In this document: piece after piece, positions 27,569 through 35,075 of the stretch
Layout of the letters: each line of letters starts with the position of its first letter
How positions within the stretch are numbered: the stretch's first letter is position 1
Source: Gammaproteobacteria bacterium
GTDB taxonomy: Bacteria; Pseudomonadota; Gammaproteobacteria; Natronospirales; JAJUFS01
DNA length: 64,000 nt
NCBI GenBank assembly: GCA_033720895.1
Contig: JAWWBS010000003.1
Location: 3,791-67,790, forward strand
Direction of reading: 5' to 3'
Notes under the pieces: generated by a model
What the model was told of the DNA's origin: nothing
The model's database searches: none
Seen by the model: the letters and a program-made list of their open reading frames with translations, nothing else
Program-made: the position numbers and the translations under genes

Positions 27569-28009
27569 ATGCAATCACTGCCGCATACCTATACCGCTGC
27601 CGCATACGGACACCCGGCGGGCGTGATCCCCATCAGCAGCAAGGACCTGGACCCCATCAAGACCCAGGCGCCGCCCGAGTTTGGCGGACCTGATGGCTTC
27701 TGGTCACCAGAAACCCTTCTGACAGCAATCGTCGCCAACTGCCTGATCCTGACCTTCCGGGCGGTGAGTCGGGCGGCGAGATTCGATTGGGAAGACCTTG
27801 ACGTGAAGGTGGACGGCACCCTGGAGAAAACTCCGGAAGGCCTGCGCTTTACGGAGTTCTTCATCAAGGCGGAATTGACCATCGAGGACGAGGCGGAAGC
27901 GACGCAGGCAGAGACCTTGCTCCTGAAAGCCAAGCAACAATGCCTGCTGACCGCCTCTCTGAACGGCGAGGTCAGCCTGGATACAAAGATCAGAACTGCC
28001 GTGGCCTGA
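27569..28009 (+). CDS. OsmC/Ohr family peroxiredoxin-like protein
   Basis: 146 aa. PEFGGPDGFWSPETLLTAIVANCLILTF and KQQCLLTASL give the two conserved Cys contexts of the OsmC family. Confidence 0.75.
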   Translation: MQSLPHTYTAAAYGHPAGVIPISSKDLDPIKTQAPPEFGGPDGFWSPETLLTAIVANCLILTFRAVSRAARFDWEDLDVKVDGTLEKTPEGLRFTEFFIKAELTIEDEAEATQAETLLLKAKQQCLLTASLNGEVSLDTKIRTAVA

Positions 28010-28126: not shown

Positions 28127-28840
28127 TCAGACCCGCTCTGCCATCGAGAGAGTATTCAGCAGGCAATGTGCGAAGACCAGCGGCCACAGGTTTCGACCAA
28201 AGGCGACATAGCCGATCCCCATCGCCAGGCCGATCAAGCCGACCGTGATCGATCGCTCCGACAAGTCCTGGGAATGTCGGAAACCGAAAATCATCGCCTG
28301 CAGCAGGACAGCAATGATCGTCGCCACCCAGGTACTGGATAGCGCGCGTTCAATCCAGTTGATCAGGAACCCGCGATCCAGCAACTCCTCCAGCATGGAT
28401 TGCAGCCAGACAAAGGGAATGATCATGAAGAACATTGCCCAGTTGCCGGACAAGTCGCCGAACTTGGATACCGCCTCCTCGCCCGATGCATCCGGAGCAA
28501 CATCGAGCCCCAGCTGATCTTTCAGCACCTGGAAAACGATGATCGAGCCAATTGCAAAGGCGAAAATGAACACCGTCGCCATAACGCTCTGCTTGAAACT
28601 GCTCGGCATCCGCAGGCCGAGATCCTTCCAGAAGACCTTCCGAAAGCGCATCAAGAGACACGCCACAAGCAGCGTGGAAAGCGACCAGAGCAAACCATTG
28701 GCAATGAAGTGGAGCTCGGAGAAATACAGTTCCCGAACCAGGAACATGATCGAGATGTAGATCACGAGGTCCAGCAGGAAAACGCGTGGTGATGCATCCT
28801 GTCCGTTGGCCGCGGCCAGTCCCTTGGTACCTGGATTCAT
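28127..28840 (-). CDS. CPBP (CAAX/Abi) family intramembrane metalloprotease
   Basis: 237 aa, polytopic, with CPBP motifs EELLDRGF and FGFRHS followed by a later H. Confidence 0.75.
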   Translation of the reverse strand: MNPGTKGLAAANGQDASPRVFLLDLVIYISIMFLVRELYFSELHFIANGLLWSLSTLLVACLLMRFRKVFWKDLGLRMPSSFKQSVMATVFIFAFAIGSIIVFQVLKDQLGLDVAPDASGEEAVSKFGDLSGNWAMFFMIIPFVWLQSMLEELLDRGFLINWIERALSSTWVATIIAVLLQAMIFGFRHSQDLSERSITVGLIGLAMGIGYVAFGRNLWPLVFAHCLLNTLSMAERV

Positions 28841-28994: not shown

Positions 28995-29032
28995 CTGAAA
29001 ACGAAGAAGCCTCGGCTTTCGCCGAGGCTTCT
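28995..29032 (-). terminator. stranded original tRNA-Pro rho-independent terminator
   Basis: A 12-bp perfect stem AGAAGCCTCGGC/GCCGAGGCTTCT (29005..29032) is followed on the minus strand by TTCGTTTTC. It lies about 10 nt 3' of the tRNA-Pro 3' fragment. Confidence 0.6.
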
Positions 29033-29042
29033 CGATGATGTC

Positions 29043-29093
29043 TGGTCGGGGTGAGAGGATTTGAACCTCCGACCACCTGCACCCCATGCAGGT
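29043..29093 (-). repeat. attL-like direct repeat: orphan 3' 51 nt of tRNA-Pro(GGG)
   Basis: Identical base for base to 31870..31920. It covers the anticodon arm, variable loop, T arm, 3' acceptor strand and CCA. Identity ends exactly at 29094. Confidence 0.9.
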
Positions 29094-29245
29094 ATCGAAA
29101 AAACCATCTTTTCCTTATATTTCAGCGGTTTATCGTCACAAAAGACCTGCATTTTTGAGTACTGTCAGGTAAATAGAATCAACAACTTACCCCTGTATAT
29201 TCCCAACCCAAAATGAAGCCACACCTTCACTAATCCGTCAGTTCC

Positions 29246-29920
29246 TCATTCACACCAAACAGAGCACTCGTTATTGCGGTCAATATTATATAGCTCAGCT
29301 GAAGCGCATGCTCCGTATGCCGAACCGTCCAAGAATATGACTCTGTCTCCAGAGTCCCATCCCATGCAATAAGTTTTCGCTTCAAAAACCTCTCCATTGA
29401 TTATGAATTTCTCATCGTTATAGGCATTACCAATTGAATAAACACTTGGTTTTGAGCATCGCCTGGGCGCTCTAAGCAATTCGACATCAAATGGTTCTTT
29501 ACCCTCAATAACCAGTTTTCCGCGTGACCTGCTTCCCATGATCAGCAGACTATCTTTCGCGTAGCCGATGTATCCGATATATCCGTATCCTTTTTTTCTT
29601 AAAATTGAACCATCCCTCAATTCAAAGTAATCGCCATCTCGATCAGATATTTTTGATTTACATACTTGAGTATTTTTTCTGACTATCCGACGCGGAGGTT
29701 CCATCCCAGAACCCTCCTTAAACTGAATGATAAGTTGCATCAGTTCATCTTGACTGTAATTCTCAAAGGCGCTGCTCGCTAAACACACGTCCACAATCAG
29801 AACGTAGCCCTGATCGCATTCACCATCGATATTCGTATTCTTTATTGGATCCGAGTGAACAGATAGAGAAACAAGCCCGAAGAAGAGAGCTGGCAGCAAT
29901 AATATATTCCTTAGTCCCAT
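29246..29920 (-). CDS. hypothetical secreted Cys-rich protein
   Basis: The ATG at 29920 has AGGAG 5 nt upstream. The signal peptide is MGLRNILLLPALFFGLVSLSVHS|DP. There are 9 Cys in the mature part, a GYGYIGYIGY stretch, and the C-terminus ends CSVWCE. I recognise no family. The ORF-track start at 30013 is less likely. Confidence 0.6.
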   Translation of the reverse strand: MGLRNILLLPALFFGLVSLSVHSDPIKNTNIDGECDQGYVLIVDVCLASSAFENYSQDELMQLIIQFKEGSGMEPPRRIVRKNTQVCKSKISDRDGDYFELRDGSILRKKGYGYIGYIGYAKDSLLIMGSRSRGKLVIEGKEPFDVELLRAPRRCSKPSVYSIGNAYNDEKFIINGEVFEAKTYCMGWDSGDRVIFLDGSAYGACASAELYNIDRNNECSVWCE

Positions 29921-30079
29921 TTGCACTCCTAGAGGCGAAGGTCGCCACAGAAACTTGCCGCTTGAATGCTTGCTAGCACCTTTCCGATAGCCAATACGAA
30001 GCGTTATCGACACGTCGATCGCTACTGAAAATTACGATACTCCCAGCTCGGCTCCACGCTTGTATGCACACAAACCGAC

Positions 30080-30577
30080 TTAAGGCCTACTGCAATCGCA
30101 GGCCCCGCAGACGCATTTAATCCACCCACATTCTGAACAAGTCTCCTGCTTTGTATTGCTTATTGGCAACTTGCAAGAAAAGCAATACGTATCACGCGCC
30201 CCCCTTTTTCCGACAATCCGCCGAATGCCCGCCGCTTTTTCCTGAGCGAAATTCTGGCGTACCTTTTCAGCCTGTTCTCTCTTTCTTCTCTGGCGATAAT
30301 ACTCTTTCTCTTCAACAATCCAGGAGAAGTTAGCACCATCCTTCCACTTGCGGTAAGCATCGATCGCGGGCGCACGATGTTTTTCCTTCGCCGAACTAAA
30401 GTAGCCCCTTGCGCTTCGATCATATTTTCCGATTTCTTGCGATTCGACTTCCCACAAGAATACATGAGGACAATCCTTCAGCTGAATAGAAGGATCGAAT
30501 ACGACAATTCCCCCCTCATATTCCCCAACCCATAGACTCACATTCTCTTCCAATTCTGTACCCCCGCTGGCTACCAC
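30080..30577 (-). CDS. hypothetical protein with C-terminal Cys8 zinc-ribbon-like cluster
   Basis: 165 aa with a GTG start and GAGG about 8 nt upstream. The middle is basic and probably helical (EEKEYYRQRRKREQAEKVRQNFAQEKAAG). The C-terminus is CFSCKLPISNTKQETCSECGWIKCVCGACDC. I recognise no family. Confidence 0.55.
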   Translation of the reverse strand: MVASGGTELEENVSLWVGEYEGGIVVFDPSIQLKDCPHVFLWEVESQEIGKYDRSARGYFSSAKEKHRAPAIDAYRKWKDGANFSWIVEEKEYYRQRRKREQAEKVRQNFAQEKAAGIRRIVGKRGARDTYCFSCKLPISNTKQETCSECGWIKCVCGACDCSRP

Positions 30578-30653
30578 ATAAAAGCCTCACCAATTCGGTC
30601 AAGCTATATCATTCTGATCCCCTAAACCCCCACCTATTGTTAGCTGCTAAGGC

Positions 30654-31535
30654 TTATCGAAAAGCAAGTCGTTTTAGTGGGGCGTGATATTGATCAATCA
30701 AGGAGTAAATAGGATCCGCCCCATGAAAAAATGATTCGGAATCAACTCCATGCTCAGTTGTTAGTTTTGCCTCTCGACGGACCGTAGAAATGGCGCCTTT
30801 TCCTACCTGCCTTTTCCACCCCGGAAAGCCAATCTGGGCAATCTTCTGAAGGGATGTGTCCTTAGGACCAAAGCCAAATTTTCTTTTTGACTTAATTTTG
30901 CAAACATCGATAAAGTTTTTATGCGGATTATCAAGGCAAAATCCGTAATCTCTTAGCCTCTGGTCCAGTTCCTGGTAAGTAATCGTGTAGTACCGGTTAT
31001 CCCTCTTTCTTGAGTTCTTTCTAATGAAGTCTGCAATCCAAATAATTTCAGGGTCATTGGAACGGCGTCCTGAAGACTTCTTTACGCGACGCTTCTTTAG
31101 ATTATTCTCAGCAATATCAACGACAAAATTCTCTAGTGGGCGCTGCTTAATAGTGGGCGATCGGTTAATCCTGGCCAGAAAATACAAAAGTACCAGCAAA
31201 CCTGTTCGTTTATTTGCATCGTGGAATGGGTGGTCCTTCACCAAACCATAAACAAGTGTGGCGCATCTTTCGAAAGGATCCTTCCACTTGTCATTGCCGT
31301 CAAAAGATACAAATTGCCGGTAAACAGCTGAATGGAGCAGATTTGGATCTCGAGGCCCCACACCACCAATGCCTCTACCCTCAGAATAGAAGTGATCAAC
31401 AATGAGGAAGTGGGCCCTCAACACATCAAGCATCCCAATTGTGTCTTTGGATGCGTACGGGTCCGATTCACCAAAATGTCTACACCACCGCTCGAACTCC
31501 GACTTAACAGCAGAATTTATGAGAATTATTTCCAA
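30654..31535 (-). CDS. Fic/Doc family protein, Doc-type (kinase-like) motif, with about 150-aa C-terminal extension
   Basis: 293 aa with a TTG start and GGAGA about 7 nt upstream. The Fic-fold core carries HPFHDANKRTGLLV, which matches the Doc variant HxFxDANKR rather than the AMPylase form HxFx(D/E)GNGR. The basic C-terminal region (KKRRVKKSSGRR...KSKRKFGFGPK) is absent from canonical Doc of about 126 aa. Confidence 0.8.
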   Translation of the reverse strand: MEIILINSAVKSEFERWCRHFGESDPYASKDTIGMLDVLRAHFLIVDHFYSEGRGIGGVGPRDPNLLHSAVYRQFVSFDGNDKWKDPFERCATLVYGLVKDHPFHDANKRTGLLVLLYFLARINRSPTIKQRPLENFVVDIAENNLKKRRVKKSSGRRSNDPEIIWIADFIRKNSRKRDNRYYTITYQELDQRLRDYGFCLDNPHKNFIDVCKIKSKRKFGFGPKDTSLQKIAQIGFPGWKRQVGKGAISTVRREAKLTTEHGVDSESFFHGADPIYSLIDQYHAPLKRLAFR

Positions 31536-31770
31536 AAATATCTCTCCGAAGTCGACTCAGACATTCAACACGTGTTAACTCGCTACAATCAAAAATGCAC
31601 GAATATTTTGGGAATATTGTTTCCCCAGAGTCTGGAGAACTACTGGCGCAAAAGAAAGTAGCAAGAGCTGAAATACCGGAAGCCTCAATCTGGCGAATCC
31701 AGAGGTGTCGAGATCTGTATGGAAATTCGAACACCTGCAGAAATGAACCGGTACCCACGGTCGATCGCGT

Positions 31771-31804
31771 GTTGGAAATATTATTTTTCCAAAATATTTC
31801 CAAC
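31771..31804. promoter_or_regulatory. perfect 12-bp inverted repeat (candidate operator or hairpin) upstream of the Doc-like gene
   Basis: GTTGGAAATATT, a 10-nt spacer, then AATATTTCCAAC. The spacer itself contains TTGGAAAAAT (minus-strand reading). Related TTGGRAATA(T/A)T copies occur at 31601..31619 and across the TTG start at 31535. Confidence 0.4.
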
Positions 31805-31813
31805 ATATTGCCA

Positions 31814-31844
31814 ACGAAAAAAGGGCGCCCAAAAAGGCGCCCTT
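31814..31844 (-). terminator. rho-independent terminator of tRNA-Pro, supplied by the islet
   Basis: On the minus strand, AAGGGCGCC-TTTTTG-GGCGCCCTT is followed by TTTTTCGTT, about 25 nt after the CCA end. Confidence 0.65.
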
Positions 31845-31869
31845 AACTCATTGTTATTGCTGAGGAATT

Positions 31870-31920
31870 TGGTCGGGGTGAGAGGATTTGAACCTCCGAC
31901 CACCTGCACCCCATGCAGGT
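31870..31920 (-). repeat. attR-like direct repeat, forming the 3' part of the intact tRNA-Pro
   Basis: 51/51 identical to 29043..29093. Confidence 0.9.
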
Positions 31921-31946
31921 GCGCTACCAGGCTGCGCTACACCCCG
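31870..31946 (-). tRNA. tRNA-Pro (anticodon GGG)
   Basis: A 77-nt cloverleaf folded by hand. Acceptor CGGGGTG/CACCCCG; D arm GCGC/GCGC; anticodon stem CCTGC/GCAGG with loop AT-GGG-GT (U33, G37); T arm GGAGG-TTCAAAT-CCTCT; encoded CCA. Confidence 0.93.
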
Positions 31947-32028: not shown

Positions 32029-32385
32029 TTACTTCTTGAGGAGGTGCAGAACTTCTTCCAGTTCGACGCGCAGCTGCTTGATGATCTGCTGGCTCTGCTG
32101 GGTGTCCTGCTTGGCGTTGTCGCCGGACAGCTGCTGGCGGGCACCGGTGATGGTGAAGCCCTGATCGTACAGCAGGCTGCGGATCTGGCGAATCACGATC
32201 ACGTCATGGCGCTGGTAGTAGCGGCGGTTGCCGCGGCGCTTGACGGGTTTCAGCTGGGGAAATTCCTGCTCCCAGTAACGCAAGACGTGAGGCTTGACGG
32301 CGCAGAGCTCCGAGACCTCACCGATGGTGAAGTACTTTTTGCCCGGGATGGCGGGAAGTTCGCTGTTATTCCCCGCTTCCAGCAT
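32029..32385 (-). CDS. MerR family transcriptional regulator
   Basis: 118 aa with the Mer[29 protein letters not shown]...RRYY. It lies immediately downstream of ihfA and overlaps it by 20 nt. Confidence 0.85.
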
Positions 32386-32665
32386 ATGCCTCTACCCTCG
32401 CCTTGAGTTTCTGACCGGGACGGAAAGTCACCACACGGCGGGCCGTAATGGGTATTTCTTCACCAGTCTTGGGATTGCGGCCAGGCCGCTGGTTCTTGTC
32501 GCGCAGGTCGAAGTTGCCAAAGCCGGAAAGCTTGATCTGCCGTCCATCGCCCAAGGCATTGCGGATTTCCTCAAAGAACAGGTCTACCAGTTCCTTGGCT
32601 TCCCGCTTGTTGAGGCCCAGTTCCTCGAACAGGGCTTCTGCCATTTCAGCTTTGGTAAGCGCCAT
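32366..32665 (-). CDS. ihfA: integration host factor subunit alpha
   Basis: 99 aa starting [34 protein letters not shown], with [26 protein letters not shown]. It follows pheT. Confidence 0.95.
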
Positions 32666-32699: not shown

Positions 32700-35075
32700 C
32701 TAATCGCGGACCTTGGCACCCAGTTCTTGCTGGAGCCTGTCACGGATTCGGGCCATCGCCTGCTCAATCTCTTCGTCATTAAGAGTGCGCGAAGAATCCT
32801 GTAAAATCAAGCTCAAAGCGATACTTTTTAGACCGGAATCTATTCGGTCGCCACGATATATGTCAAACATGCGGATGTCCTGCAAAAGCTGGGGTTCCGC
32901 GGCTTTGACGACCTCGATCAGCTGGTTTGCCGGCACGTTTTCGTCCACCAGCAAGGCCAGGTCGCGGCTGATGGCCGGGAACCTGGAGATGGGGGCCTTC
33001 TTCGGTGCCCGGGTTGCCAACAGCGGCGCCAGTCGCATCTCGAAAACGATCGCGCCCTGGCTCAGGCCCAGCTTGCCCACCAGTTGTGGGTGCAGGACGC
33101 CCATCCAGCCAATTTCTTCACCGTCCTTAAGTAATCTCGCTGTCTGGCCGGGATGAAGGCCGGGATGCTCCCCTGCTTCGGCCTTGAGCTCGCCACCCCC
33201 CAATCCGACCAGGGCAGCCACGTCATTCTTGAGATCGGCGAAGTCGACTGCACGCTCGGGCATGCCCCACTGCAGCGGCCATTGGTTGCCGGAGACCAGA
33301 CCGGAGATAACATTTTCCTGAATGGTTTCATTGGCTTGCGATATAAACCTCATGCCGGTTTCGAAGATGCGAACCCGTGATTGTTGGCGATTGAGGTTAT
33401 ATTCCAGCGCCTTGACGAGACCGGCCCATAGGTTGCGGCGCATGTGCGTCAGGTCGGCCGTGATCGGGTTCGCCAGCGGGATACCCGCCTCGCCGGACAA
33501 GGCCTCCTGGAGCTCGGCAGCCACAAAGCTGTAGGTAATGACTTCCTGGTAGCCCCGCTGGACCAGCACGTCCTTCAAGCGGGTCAGGCTGACCTCGCTT
33601 TCTGGCGCCGGGACCATCGGCTGCTGGCTCGGATACTGCACGGGTGCGATGTGGTCGTAGCCATGGATCCGCCCCACTTCCTCGACCAGGTCTTCCTCGA
33701 TCTCGATATCGAATCGATGACTCGGCGCCTGGACTTCCCAGCCGGCATCAACCGCCTTCGGCGGCATCCGGAGTGCGGTGAGAATGCGTTCGACCTCGGC
33801 ATCCGGAATGTCGATGCCCAGCAAGCTTGCCAGCCGCGCCTTTCGAAGCGTGATGCTGTTGCGCGCGGGGCGGGTTTTCGACTCGAAACCGCTGACCGGG
33901 CCCGGCTGGCCACCGGCAATGTCCATCAGCAAGCGCGTGGCGCGCTCGATGGCACGCAATTGCCCGGAAGGATCGACACCGCGTTCGAAGCGATAGCCCG
34001 CGTCCGTGTGCATGCCCAGGCGACGCGGACGGCCGTTGATGGTCGAGTTGTCGAAATAGGCGCATTCCAGGTAGATGTCGGCGGTGTCGTCCTGCACCCC
34101 AGAATCCTTGCCACCCATGATCCCGGCAATGCCCAGCAGCTGCTTGCCATCGGGACCTTTGGCAATCACCAGGACGTCATCGGATAGCTCCTTTTCCTCG
34201 CCATCGAGCAGCACCAGCTTTTCGCCCTGCCTGGCGAAACGAACGACAATGCCGCCGTCGACTTCTCGCAGGTCGTAACCATGCATGGGCTGGCCCAGTT
34301 CGATCATCACGTATTGCGTCACGTCGACCACCGGGCTGATGGGACGGATGCCGGCACGACGCAGGCGTTCCTGCATCCACAACGGCGTCTCGGCGTTCGG
34401 ATCGATGCCCTTGATGACACGGCCGAGGAAGGTCGGGCACGCTGCCTCGTCCTTCACGACCACCGGCAGGGTGTCATCGATCTCCGCTTCCACTTCCTCG
34501 TTCACCGGCACTTCGGCCTCGCCCTCGACCAGCGCCGCCACATCACGTGCGACGCCGAGCATGCCCAGGCAGTCCCCACGGTTCGGGGTGATCTCGATTT
34601 CGATGACGTGATCATCACCGCCAAGGAACTCGGTCAGCGGCTTGCCCAGCGGTGCATCGCTTGGCAGGTCCATCAAGCCTGCGTGGTCTTCCGAAAGCCC
34701 CAGTTCGCGCGCCGAGCACAGCATGCCCGACGACTCGACGCCACGCAGCTTGGCTTTCTTGATCTTCGTGCCATCCGGAAGCTTGGATCCTGGCAGGATG
34801 ACCGGCGCTTTCATGCCAGCCCGGGCATTCGGCGCACCACAGACGATCTGGTGCTCGTCCTTGCCGTCGGTCGTGACCTTGCAGACCTTCAGCTTGTCGG
34901 CATCCGGGTGCTTCTCGCAGGAGAGCACTTCACCGATGACGATACCGTCCAGCACCGGCACCGCCGGGTCCACTGCGGCCACTTCGAGGCCAGCCAGGCT
35001 CAGCCGTTCGGCGAGCTCCGCCGGGCTGTCCTGGACCTTCACGATTTCCTGCAACCATTGGTAACTGACTTTCAT
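32700..35075 (-). CDS. pheT: phenylalanine--tRNA ligase beta subunit
   Basis: 791 aa starting MKVSYQWLQE. It has a tRNA-binding domain plus B3/4, B5 and FDX-ACB regions, and follows pheS. Confidence 0.96.
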   Translation of the reverse strand: MKVSYQWLQEIVKVQDSPAELAERLSLAGLEVAAVDPAVPVLDGIVIGEVLSCEKHPDADKLKVCKVTTDGKDEHQIVCGAPNARAGMKAPVILPGSKLPDGTKIKKAKLRGVESSGMLCSARELGLSEDHAGLMDLPSDAPLGKPLTEFLGGDDHVIEIEITPNRGDCLGMLGVARDVAALVEGEAEVPVNEEVEAEIDDTLPVVVKDEAACPTFLGRVIKGIDPNAETPLWMQERLRRAGIRPISPVVDVTQYVMIELGQPMHGYDLREVDGGIVVRFARQGEKLVLLDGEEKELSDDVLVIAKGPDGKQLLGIAGIMGGKDSGVQDDTADIYLECAYFDNSTINGRPRRLGMHTDAGYRFERGVDPSGQLRAIERATRLLMDIAGGQPGPVSGFESKTRPARNSITLRKARLASLLGIDIPDAEVERILTALRMPPKAVDAGWEVQAPSHRFDIEIEEDLVEEVGRIHGYDHIAPVQYPSQQPMVPAPESEVSLTRLKDVLVQRGYQEVITYSFVAAELQEALSGEAGIPLANPITADLTHMRRNLWAGLVKALEYNLNRQQSRVRIFETGMRFISQANETIQENVISGLVSGNQWPLQWGMPERAVDFADLKNDVAALVGLGGGELKAEAGEHPGLHPGQTARLLKDGEEIGWMGVLHPQLVGKLGLSQGAIVFEMRLAPLLATRAPKKAPISRFPAISRDLALLVDENVPANQLIEVVKAAEPQLLQDIRMFDIYRGDRIDSGLKSIALSLILQDSSRTLNDEEIEQAMARIRDRLQQELGAKVRD

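Follow-up and report, generated by a model that had tools for sequence, protein, structure and literature searches.

A 2.8-kb integrase-less islet of foreign composition at the tRNA-Pro(GGG) gene of an uncultured gammaproteobacterium

Anatomy of the islet

The window (the whole stretch of DNA that was analysed, 64 kb in length) belongs to contig JAWWBS010000003.1 of an uncultured gammaproteobacterium, which is represented by a metagenome-assembled genome (MAG) from one sample only, SAMN30677861, whose reads are filed as SRR21430008. It contains an islet which is located at a tRNA-Pro(GGG) gene, is bounded by two copies of a 51-bp direct repeat and carries three genes, each of them intact and encoded on the minus strand. 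The tRNA-Pro(GGG) gene itself was identified as an intact gene of 77 nt at 31870-31946 on the minus strand (ARAGORN; Rfam score of 62.6 bits). The proximal copy of the repeat (31870-31920) corresponds to the 3' 51 nt of this gene, starting at canonical position 26, including the anticodon and T arms and ending with the CCA, and was assigned as the tRNA-proximal core of the attachment (att) site, attL. It is 100% identical to the distal copy at 29043-29093, the start-to-start distance between the two being 2,827 bp. The distal copy, assigned as the attR core, is a displaced 3' fragment of tRNA-Pro, which lies 3' of the tRNA gene on the same strand and in the same orientation, extends to the CCA end and gives a weak match to the tmRNA/tRNA clan of Rfam on the minus strand. 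The match between the copies ends abruptly, with tgtc versus aatt on the outside and atcg versus gcgc on the inside. Within the 64-kb window neither half of the core occurs a third time, and, by our own arithmetic, chance falls short of producing a perfect 51-mer repeat in 64 kb by roughly 20 orders of magnitude. [quoted passage not shown]

A transposon with its target-site duplication was considered as a source of the repeats and was rejected, terminal inverted repeats being absent and 51 bp being too long for such a duplication. Known target-site duplications are far shorter than 51 bp.

The islet body between the repeats (29094-31869, 2,776 bp) is compositionally foreign. Its guanine-plus-cytosine (GC) content is 0.444 (44.4%), whereas the remainder of the window has 0.613 (61.3%; z = -12), and the lowest value of any other stretch of the same size in the window is 0.581. 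The tetranucleotide distance of the islet is likewise extreme (z = +19.6), and the fall in GC starts within about 100 bp of each repeat. The GC content at third codon positions (GC3) was determined to be 0.40-0.49 for the islet genes and 0.63-0.83 for the flanking genes. The sequence-only reading had judged by eye that the islet is richer in AT than its flanks and had called it the only clearly acquired DNA of the window. The computed values confirm the former and agree with the latter, the islet being the only strongly anomalous region of the window by composition.

Three minus-strand genes, pheT (32700-35075), ihfA (32366-32665) and one of the MerR family (32029-32385), form a conserved block which is closed by tRNA-Pro. 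The order pheT...tRNA-Pro(GGG) is kept in about 55 gammaproteobacterial loci. Past the distal repeat, genes for a CPBP/Rce1-like membrane protease (28127-28840) and OsmC (27569-28009) were identified. One locus with the gammaproteobacterial type of pheT-tRNA-Pro(GGG) arrangement was labelled Candidatus Bathyarchaeota (L036), which is probably due to MAG contamination.

Two terminator hairpins were identified on the minus strand. The first (28997-29032; minimum free energy (MFE) -30 kcal/mol, z = -5.5) lies behind the displaced fragment, has sub-threshold matches to small RNA terminators of Rfam at 29005-29032, and is the original terminator of the tRNA, marking the original downstream flank of the gene. 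The second (31811-31844; MFE -27.7 kcal/mol, z = -5.7) is an intrinsic terminator supplied by the islet, located 26 nt past the regenerated tRNA, with a stem of 10 pairs, 7 of them GC, and a T-run behind it. Taken together, the two hairpins fix the polarity of the insertion event. A hairpin directly after the tRNA is also present in prophages at the same tRNA-Pro site. No other non-coding RNA was recognised in the islet, only the tRNA exceeding the Rfam thresholds.

Attachment site and non-coding arms

A 38-nt part of the att core was found in 16 stretches of IMG/VR viral contigs (L182-L197), most of which carry the full tRNA-Pro(GGG). Displaced fragments were measured in four of them, with lengths of at least 55 nt (L183), 53 nt (L185), 51 nt (L186) and 50 nt (L196), and all start on the 5' side of the anticodon stem. 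One prophage, on a 46-kb viral contig, is represented by both of its ends (L187 and L196). In six stretches (L188, L195, L194, L197, L190 and L193) a related tyrosine integrase is encoded 87-266 nt from the tRNA's 3' end on the opposite strand; these integrases are 353-433 aa in length and carry the domains Phage_integrase and Phage_int_M. A seventh integrase gene, in L182, lies at 724 nt, and the tRNA-like copy there is imperfect at its 5' end. Since core and fragment boundaries are shared with these prophages, the islet sits, bounded as they are, in the anticodon-centred attB that a family of phage integrases uses. DNA enclosed by an intact tRNA gene and the displaced 3' part of that gene is the signature of tRNA-regenerating site-specific integration (PMC4383910), and the att site of the islet agrees with the principle and the site classes given there for tDNA islands. 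Insertion by a tyrosine-integrase element at this anticodon-centred tRNA site is highly probable.

Family searches revealed no recombinase, integrase, transposase, relaxase, excisionase or conjugation domain in any open reading frame (ORF) of the islet. The non-coding spacer of 334 bp between the tRNA and the first gene (31536-31869), which is the position of the integrase in intact elements, has no ORF with a family match, and the non-coding arm of 152 bp adjoining the distal repeat (29094-29245) has no significant ORF. Nine tyrosine recombinases, comprising seven integrases from prophages at the same tRNA-Pro site and two others, were compared by tblastn with the spacer, the other non-coding parts and the 64-kb window for a remnant of an integrase gene, and gave only noise. 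The proposal of the sequence-only reading that a site-specific integrative element had entered the tRNA gene stood insofar as foreign DNA lies exactly between the intact tRNA and the displaced 3' fragment and prophages use the same segment of tRNA-Pro with fragments of 50-55 nt. It did not stand for a self-sufficient element, in that neither an integrase, an excisionase, a transposase or a transfer function nor a remnant of one was found. The same reading had called the element unusually small. At 2.8 kb it is small, but the absence of the integrase and other mobility genes explains the size, which is no evidence for a very compact autonomous element.

In the tRNA-proximal arm the motif TTGGAAATATT is clustered. 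With up to one mismatch allowed, four copies were found compared with 0.25 expected in the 64-kb window, all at 31525-31803. Three of these are located in the spacer (31608-31618, 31772-31782 and 31793-31803), the last two forming a perfect 11-nt inverted pair, while the fourth (31525-31535) overlaps the start of the first cargo gene. The copies could be an operator, integrase arm sites, or a chance occurrence in AT-rich DNA.

Other inserts were found at the same tRNA in other taxa. In L031 (4158-8038), 3.8 kb without an obvious integrase lies between tRNA-Pro(GGG) and a displaced fragment; the DNA between them has the GC content of the host, and the fragment is closer to the consensus tRNA than to the anticodon stem of its own host. 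In L034 (4874-9876), 4.9 kb without an obvious integrase is bounded by a fragment with the identical 51-nt boundary and 5 mismatches. One gene between the L034 repeats stands next to tRNA-Pro in L021 too, although that genome has no fragment. Six contigs of different Gammaproteobacteria (L003, L005, L006, L025, L062 and L077) end 0-2 nt from the 3' end of tRNA-Pro, contig breaks which are typical of a repeated or variable site, and the genes just downstream of tRNA-Pro, among them restriction-modification genes, differ greatly from taxon to taxon. In Gammaproteobacteria the tRNA-Pro(GGG) gene which closes the conserved pheST-ihfA-merR block is thus a landing site used repeatedly, at which decay to integrase-less islets appears to be common. 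A different arrangement was observed in a Motiliproteus MAG (L028, 13157-13700), where two intact tRNA-Pro(GGG) genes precede three or more degenerate copies, arranged in tandem with a period of about 100 nt.

Cargo genes

The gene nearest to the tRNA (30654-31535, minus strand) encodes a solitary Doc-like protein of 293 aa with the Fic fold, starting from a TTG codon. It was identified by matches to Pfam Fic (1.4e-12), TIGR01550 DOC_P1 (46 bits, cut-off 38.65) and phrog_577, a family of Doc-like toxins classed as moron. It is the only islet protein with PHROG matches, the other being to phrog_18015, a phage family of unknown function whose match spans both domains of the protein. The Doc-type variant of the Fic motif, HxFxDANKR, is present, and the segment H102-P-F-H-D-A-N-K-R110 is invariant in 33 of the 33 aligned sequences, which are conserved over the full length. 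Among the candidates retrieved, 911 were homologues, with a typical size of about 294 aa. The 34 residues upstream of the annotated Met are kept in the homologues, including the invariant R16, W17 and G34. Because of this conserved N-terminus, the TTG at 31535 is likely to be the real start, and the public annotation (P0001, 259 aa, from an internal Met) is likely too short.

An AlphaFold model of the Doc-like protein was obtained with a predicted local distance difference test (pLDDT) score of 85.9. The N-terminal domain of the model (residues about 35-150) matches P1 Doc (3k33) with a target-normalised template modelling score (TM-score) of 0.75 and a probability of 1.0. The additional C-terminal domain of about 140 aa is predicted to have an alpha-beta-beta-beta-alpha arrangement plus helices; no Pfam family matches it, and the sole structural lead is a weak match to 1whz. 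The protein shares the Doc-type Fic motif and the Doc fold with P1 Doc (3k33, 3dd7, 3kh2), the toxin of the Phd/Doc type II toxin-antitoxin system. In contrast to the P1 Doc-type toxin, a single-domain protein of about 125 aa, the islet protein of 293 aa has a second conserved domain. Phd/Doc also includes an adjacent antitoxin gene, whereas neither a Phd-like nor any other conserved partner accompanies the Doc-like gene: upstream of the gene, no conserved ORF of 28 aa or more was found in 71 loci, and in 85 loci neither side had one of 60 aa or more. The lack of a conserved neighbour in these 71-85 loci places the gene outside the canonical Phd/Doc pair.

The homologues are solitary genes of variable accessory regions, their neighbours including a TIR-domain gene, OLD/AAA_15 genes, insertion sequence (IS) elements and genes of the type found in integrative and conjugative elements (ICEs), as well as a SieB-like gene. 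Among the closest JGI homologues, a tyrosine recombinase gene lies directly upstream in 5 of the 40 loci with enough upstream sequence. Three metagenome contigs (L099, 180-2325; L100, 310-2355; L103, 1406-3549) share a 2.1-kb module of a 359-aa tyrosine recombinase gene and a Doc-like gene, with 75-87% DNA identity and unrelated flanks, which may be a very compact mobile unit. An integron cassette was considered for these three contigs and rejected, the repeated element being a small gene and not an attC or att site. A few of the Doc-like homologues lie near tRNAs, but none of them has a displaced fragment. These contexts fit a moron-type gene riding at the integrase-proximal end of integrative elements. 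In L089 (7762-9876), genes for a Doc-like and a TIR-domain protein lie in low-GC DNA beside tRNA-Asn, flanked on both sides by copies of an imperfect direct repeat of 45 nt (80%); further downstream, hairpins which resemble terminators and one another return about every 670 nt.

The second gene (30080-30577, minus strand) encodes an ORFan which is 165 aa long (157 aa as annotated by NCBI) and whose C-terminus is rich in Cys and resembles a zinc ribbon. Its sole database match is its own record, and no family was found for it in Pfam, NCBIfam, PADLOC or PHROGs. The product of the third gene (29246-29920, minus strand) is a protein of 224 aa with a signal-peptide-like N-terminus, a conserved C-terminal domain of about 65 aa and 19 homologues. 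Residues C185, C205, C219 and C223 are invariant in this domain. The model of the protein (pLDDT 55) was too poor for a fold search and was confident only for the C-terminal domain, which is all-beta. A homologue with 59% identity was found in L088 (6775-11395), where transposase genes of the IS66 family surround it and HipA and GmrSD-type genes are adjacent, which suggests that the gene also travels with mobile or defence DNA. Neither the three-gene combination nor a related islet was found in phage and plasmid records, in viral contigs (protein search) or at 95 loci of Fic homologues.

The cargo points to a large uncharacterised family of solitary two-domain Doc-like proteins in defence and mobile contexts, which may deserve a study of its own.

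Origin of the islet and comparison with known systems

The islet is probably a non-autonomous remnant of an integrative element, most likely the decayed end of a prophage or island, with both att sites kept. According to this reconstruction, a tyrosine integrase would have recombined the attP of an element with the anticodon-centred attB of tRNA-Pro(GGG); the block of identity, 51 nt in length, begins on the 5' side of the anticodon stem and reaches the CCA end. Integration would have regenerated the tRNA, with a new terminator supplied by the element, and would have pushed the old 3' fragment and the original terminator 2.8 kb downstream. The integrase gene, whose usual place is about 90-270 nt from the tRNA, would since have been lost, leaving both att cores, two short non-coding arms and the three intact cargo genes. 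We infer that an integrase catalysed the insertion and that its gene was lost by deletion rather than having been absent originally.

Three assemblies are on record, and the contig of the window crosses both junctions of the islet. In the ENA/SPIRE assembly ERZ28654253, scaffold_2 (L086/L096) covers everything between pheT and 29039 without a break, the tRNA and the whole islet included, and differs from the window at five positions, all of them outside the islet. Scaffold_108 of the same assembly (L097) enters from the left and ends at 29093, the inner edge of the distal repeat, so that the two scaffolds overlap by exactly 55 nt, i.e. 4 nt of flank and the 51-nt repeat. In the Logan assembly with k=31 the islet is a separate contig of 2,833 bp with both ends inside the repeat, as the repeat is longer than this k. 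The stop of scaffold_108 after flank and repeat hints at a branch of the assembly graph between an occupied and an empty allele, i.e. at an islet which is polymorphic in the population.

Several points weigh against a decayed element. No truncated gene or fragment of an integrase marks a deletion, and the three genes appear to be full-length in comparison with their homologues. An integrase-bearing element with the same cargo was not found, the combination of genes being unique and the 165-aa ORFan having no homologue. Nor was an empty site in a relative shown among GTDB species representatives or by exact-protein look-ups, there being no close relative in public data: PheT-based loci from 80 species of GTDB representatives had at most 62% PheT identity and none of them carried the CPBP or OsmC genes of the left flank, while look-ups of the exact MerR and OsmC proteins returned the same sample only. 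Finally, all assemblies probably come from that one sample, and the junctions are not independently replicated.

The strongest of the rival explanations, although itself unlikely, is that the islet never had an integrase and is a functional miniature hitch-hiker moved in trans by a co-resident integrase specific for tRNA-Pro(GGG), with the Doc-like gene stabilising or defending it. The perfection of both cores, the lack of a truncated gene and the frequency of prophage integrases with this tRNA-Pro specificity are in its favour; no second copy or relative of the islet was present in the searched data, however, and the 64-kb window contains no helper integrase. The end of scaffold_108 at 29093 and the 55-nt overlap are what a de Bruijn branch between occupied and empty alleles would give, but this argument from a contig end is indirect, and the SPIRE paper reports MEGAHIT defaults (PMC10767986), whose list of k values does not include 55. 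Similarly, the cluster of TTGGAAATATT copies with its perfect inverted pair in the tRNA-proximal arm would suit a hitch-hiker, yet the DNA around it is AT-rich, and the start of the gene itself accounts for one of the four copies. The two further integrase-less, repeat-bounded inserts at the same tRNA in other taxa (L031 and L034) also speak for it, the latter with the reservation that a gene between its repeats stands beside tRNA-Pro in the fragment-free L021 as well. Its fullest form, in which the islet would be a still-mobile, polymorphic 2.8-kb parasite of tRNA-Pro(GGG) prophage integrases, stabilised or defended by a two-domain Doc-like toxin, and in which L031 and L034 would be of the same kind, is more doubtful still.

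An artefact of metagenome assembly, in which a free circle of 2.8 kb, or AT-rich DNA from a different organism, was joined into the contig via shared tRNA-Pro sequence, is very improbable. In its favour, the source is a MAG, the islet forms its own contig in the Logan assembly, a second assembly breaks at the repeat, and the 3' half of the tRNA is conserved across taxa. Against this, a foreign piece would need the 51-bp sequence at both of its ends, which would make it an att-bearing element in its own right, either circular or bounded by repeats, scaffold_2 continues from pheT via tRNA and islet into the left flank, and the window contig spans both junctions; as 51 nt is less than the final k of the usual assemblers, reads presumably had to cover them. 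A local duplication of the 3' half of the tRNA around old resident DNA, AT-rich for functional reasons, has a parallel in the host-like GC content of the L031 insert but can practically be dismissed, given that GC, GC3 and tetranucleotide usage of the islet are extreme outliers, that the cargo is of the mobile-element type, that the fragment boundary is that of prophage att sites, and that a perfect repeat argues against great age.

The definitions of tDNA islands and of cis-mobilisable elements (CIMEs) fit the anatomy of the islet (PMC4383910, PMC5704250). Integrase-less islets flanked by tRNA fragments are already known, as are CIMEs (PMC4383910, PMC5704250), and the islet is a further case in a poorly sampled lineage. 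It is a clean example of how tRNA-targeting elements leave behind small islets without an integrase. As in the tDNA islands defined by Islander (PMC4383910), an intact tRNA and a cognate fragment occur on the same replicon, the fragment being the terminal 3' part, located downstream and in the same orientation, and the length of 2,827 bp falls within the Islander range of 2-200 kb. A tyrosine integrase inside the island is also demanded there (PMC4383910) and is lacking in the islet, which the Islander filter would reject; finders which require an integrase miss such islets by design.

With the prophages at tRNA-Pro(GGG) the islet shares an identity block starting from the 5' side of the anticodon stem (about 50-55 nt in the prophages, 51 nt in the islet) and an element-supplied hairpin right after the tRNA; foreign composition is common to the islet, tDNA islands and prophages. 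The prophages encode their integrase 87-266 nt from the tRNA, while the islet has neither an integrase nor phage structural or regulatory genes, and its size of 2.8 kb contrasts with the 46-kb viral contig of the L187/L196 prophage.

Without a recombinase the islet is unable to move by itself, but an integrase of matching specificity could in principle excise it in trans. With both att sites kept, this makes it CIME-like. The CIMEs (PMC5704250) of streptococcal families of ICEs and integrative and mobilisable elements (IMEs) likewise lack genes for integration and transfer and keep attL and attR; in the islet both 51-bp cores are perfect, and the arm sites are putative. By analogy with CIMEs, the islet might act as a landing pad on which other elements accrete, or a related integrase might excise it. 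If trans-mobilisation were true, the CIME concept would be extended from streptococcal ICEs to phage integrases in Proteobacteria, and a lower size limit would be set for tRNA-integrating mobile DNA. CIMEs were defined for decayed ICEs and IMEs of Firmicutes, whereas nothing ties the islet to conjugation and its site, unlike theirs, is one used by phage integrases in Gammaproteobacteria.

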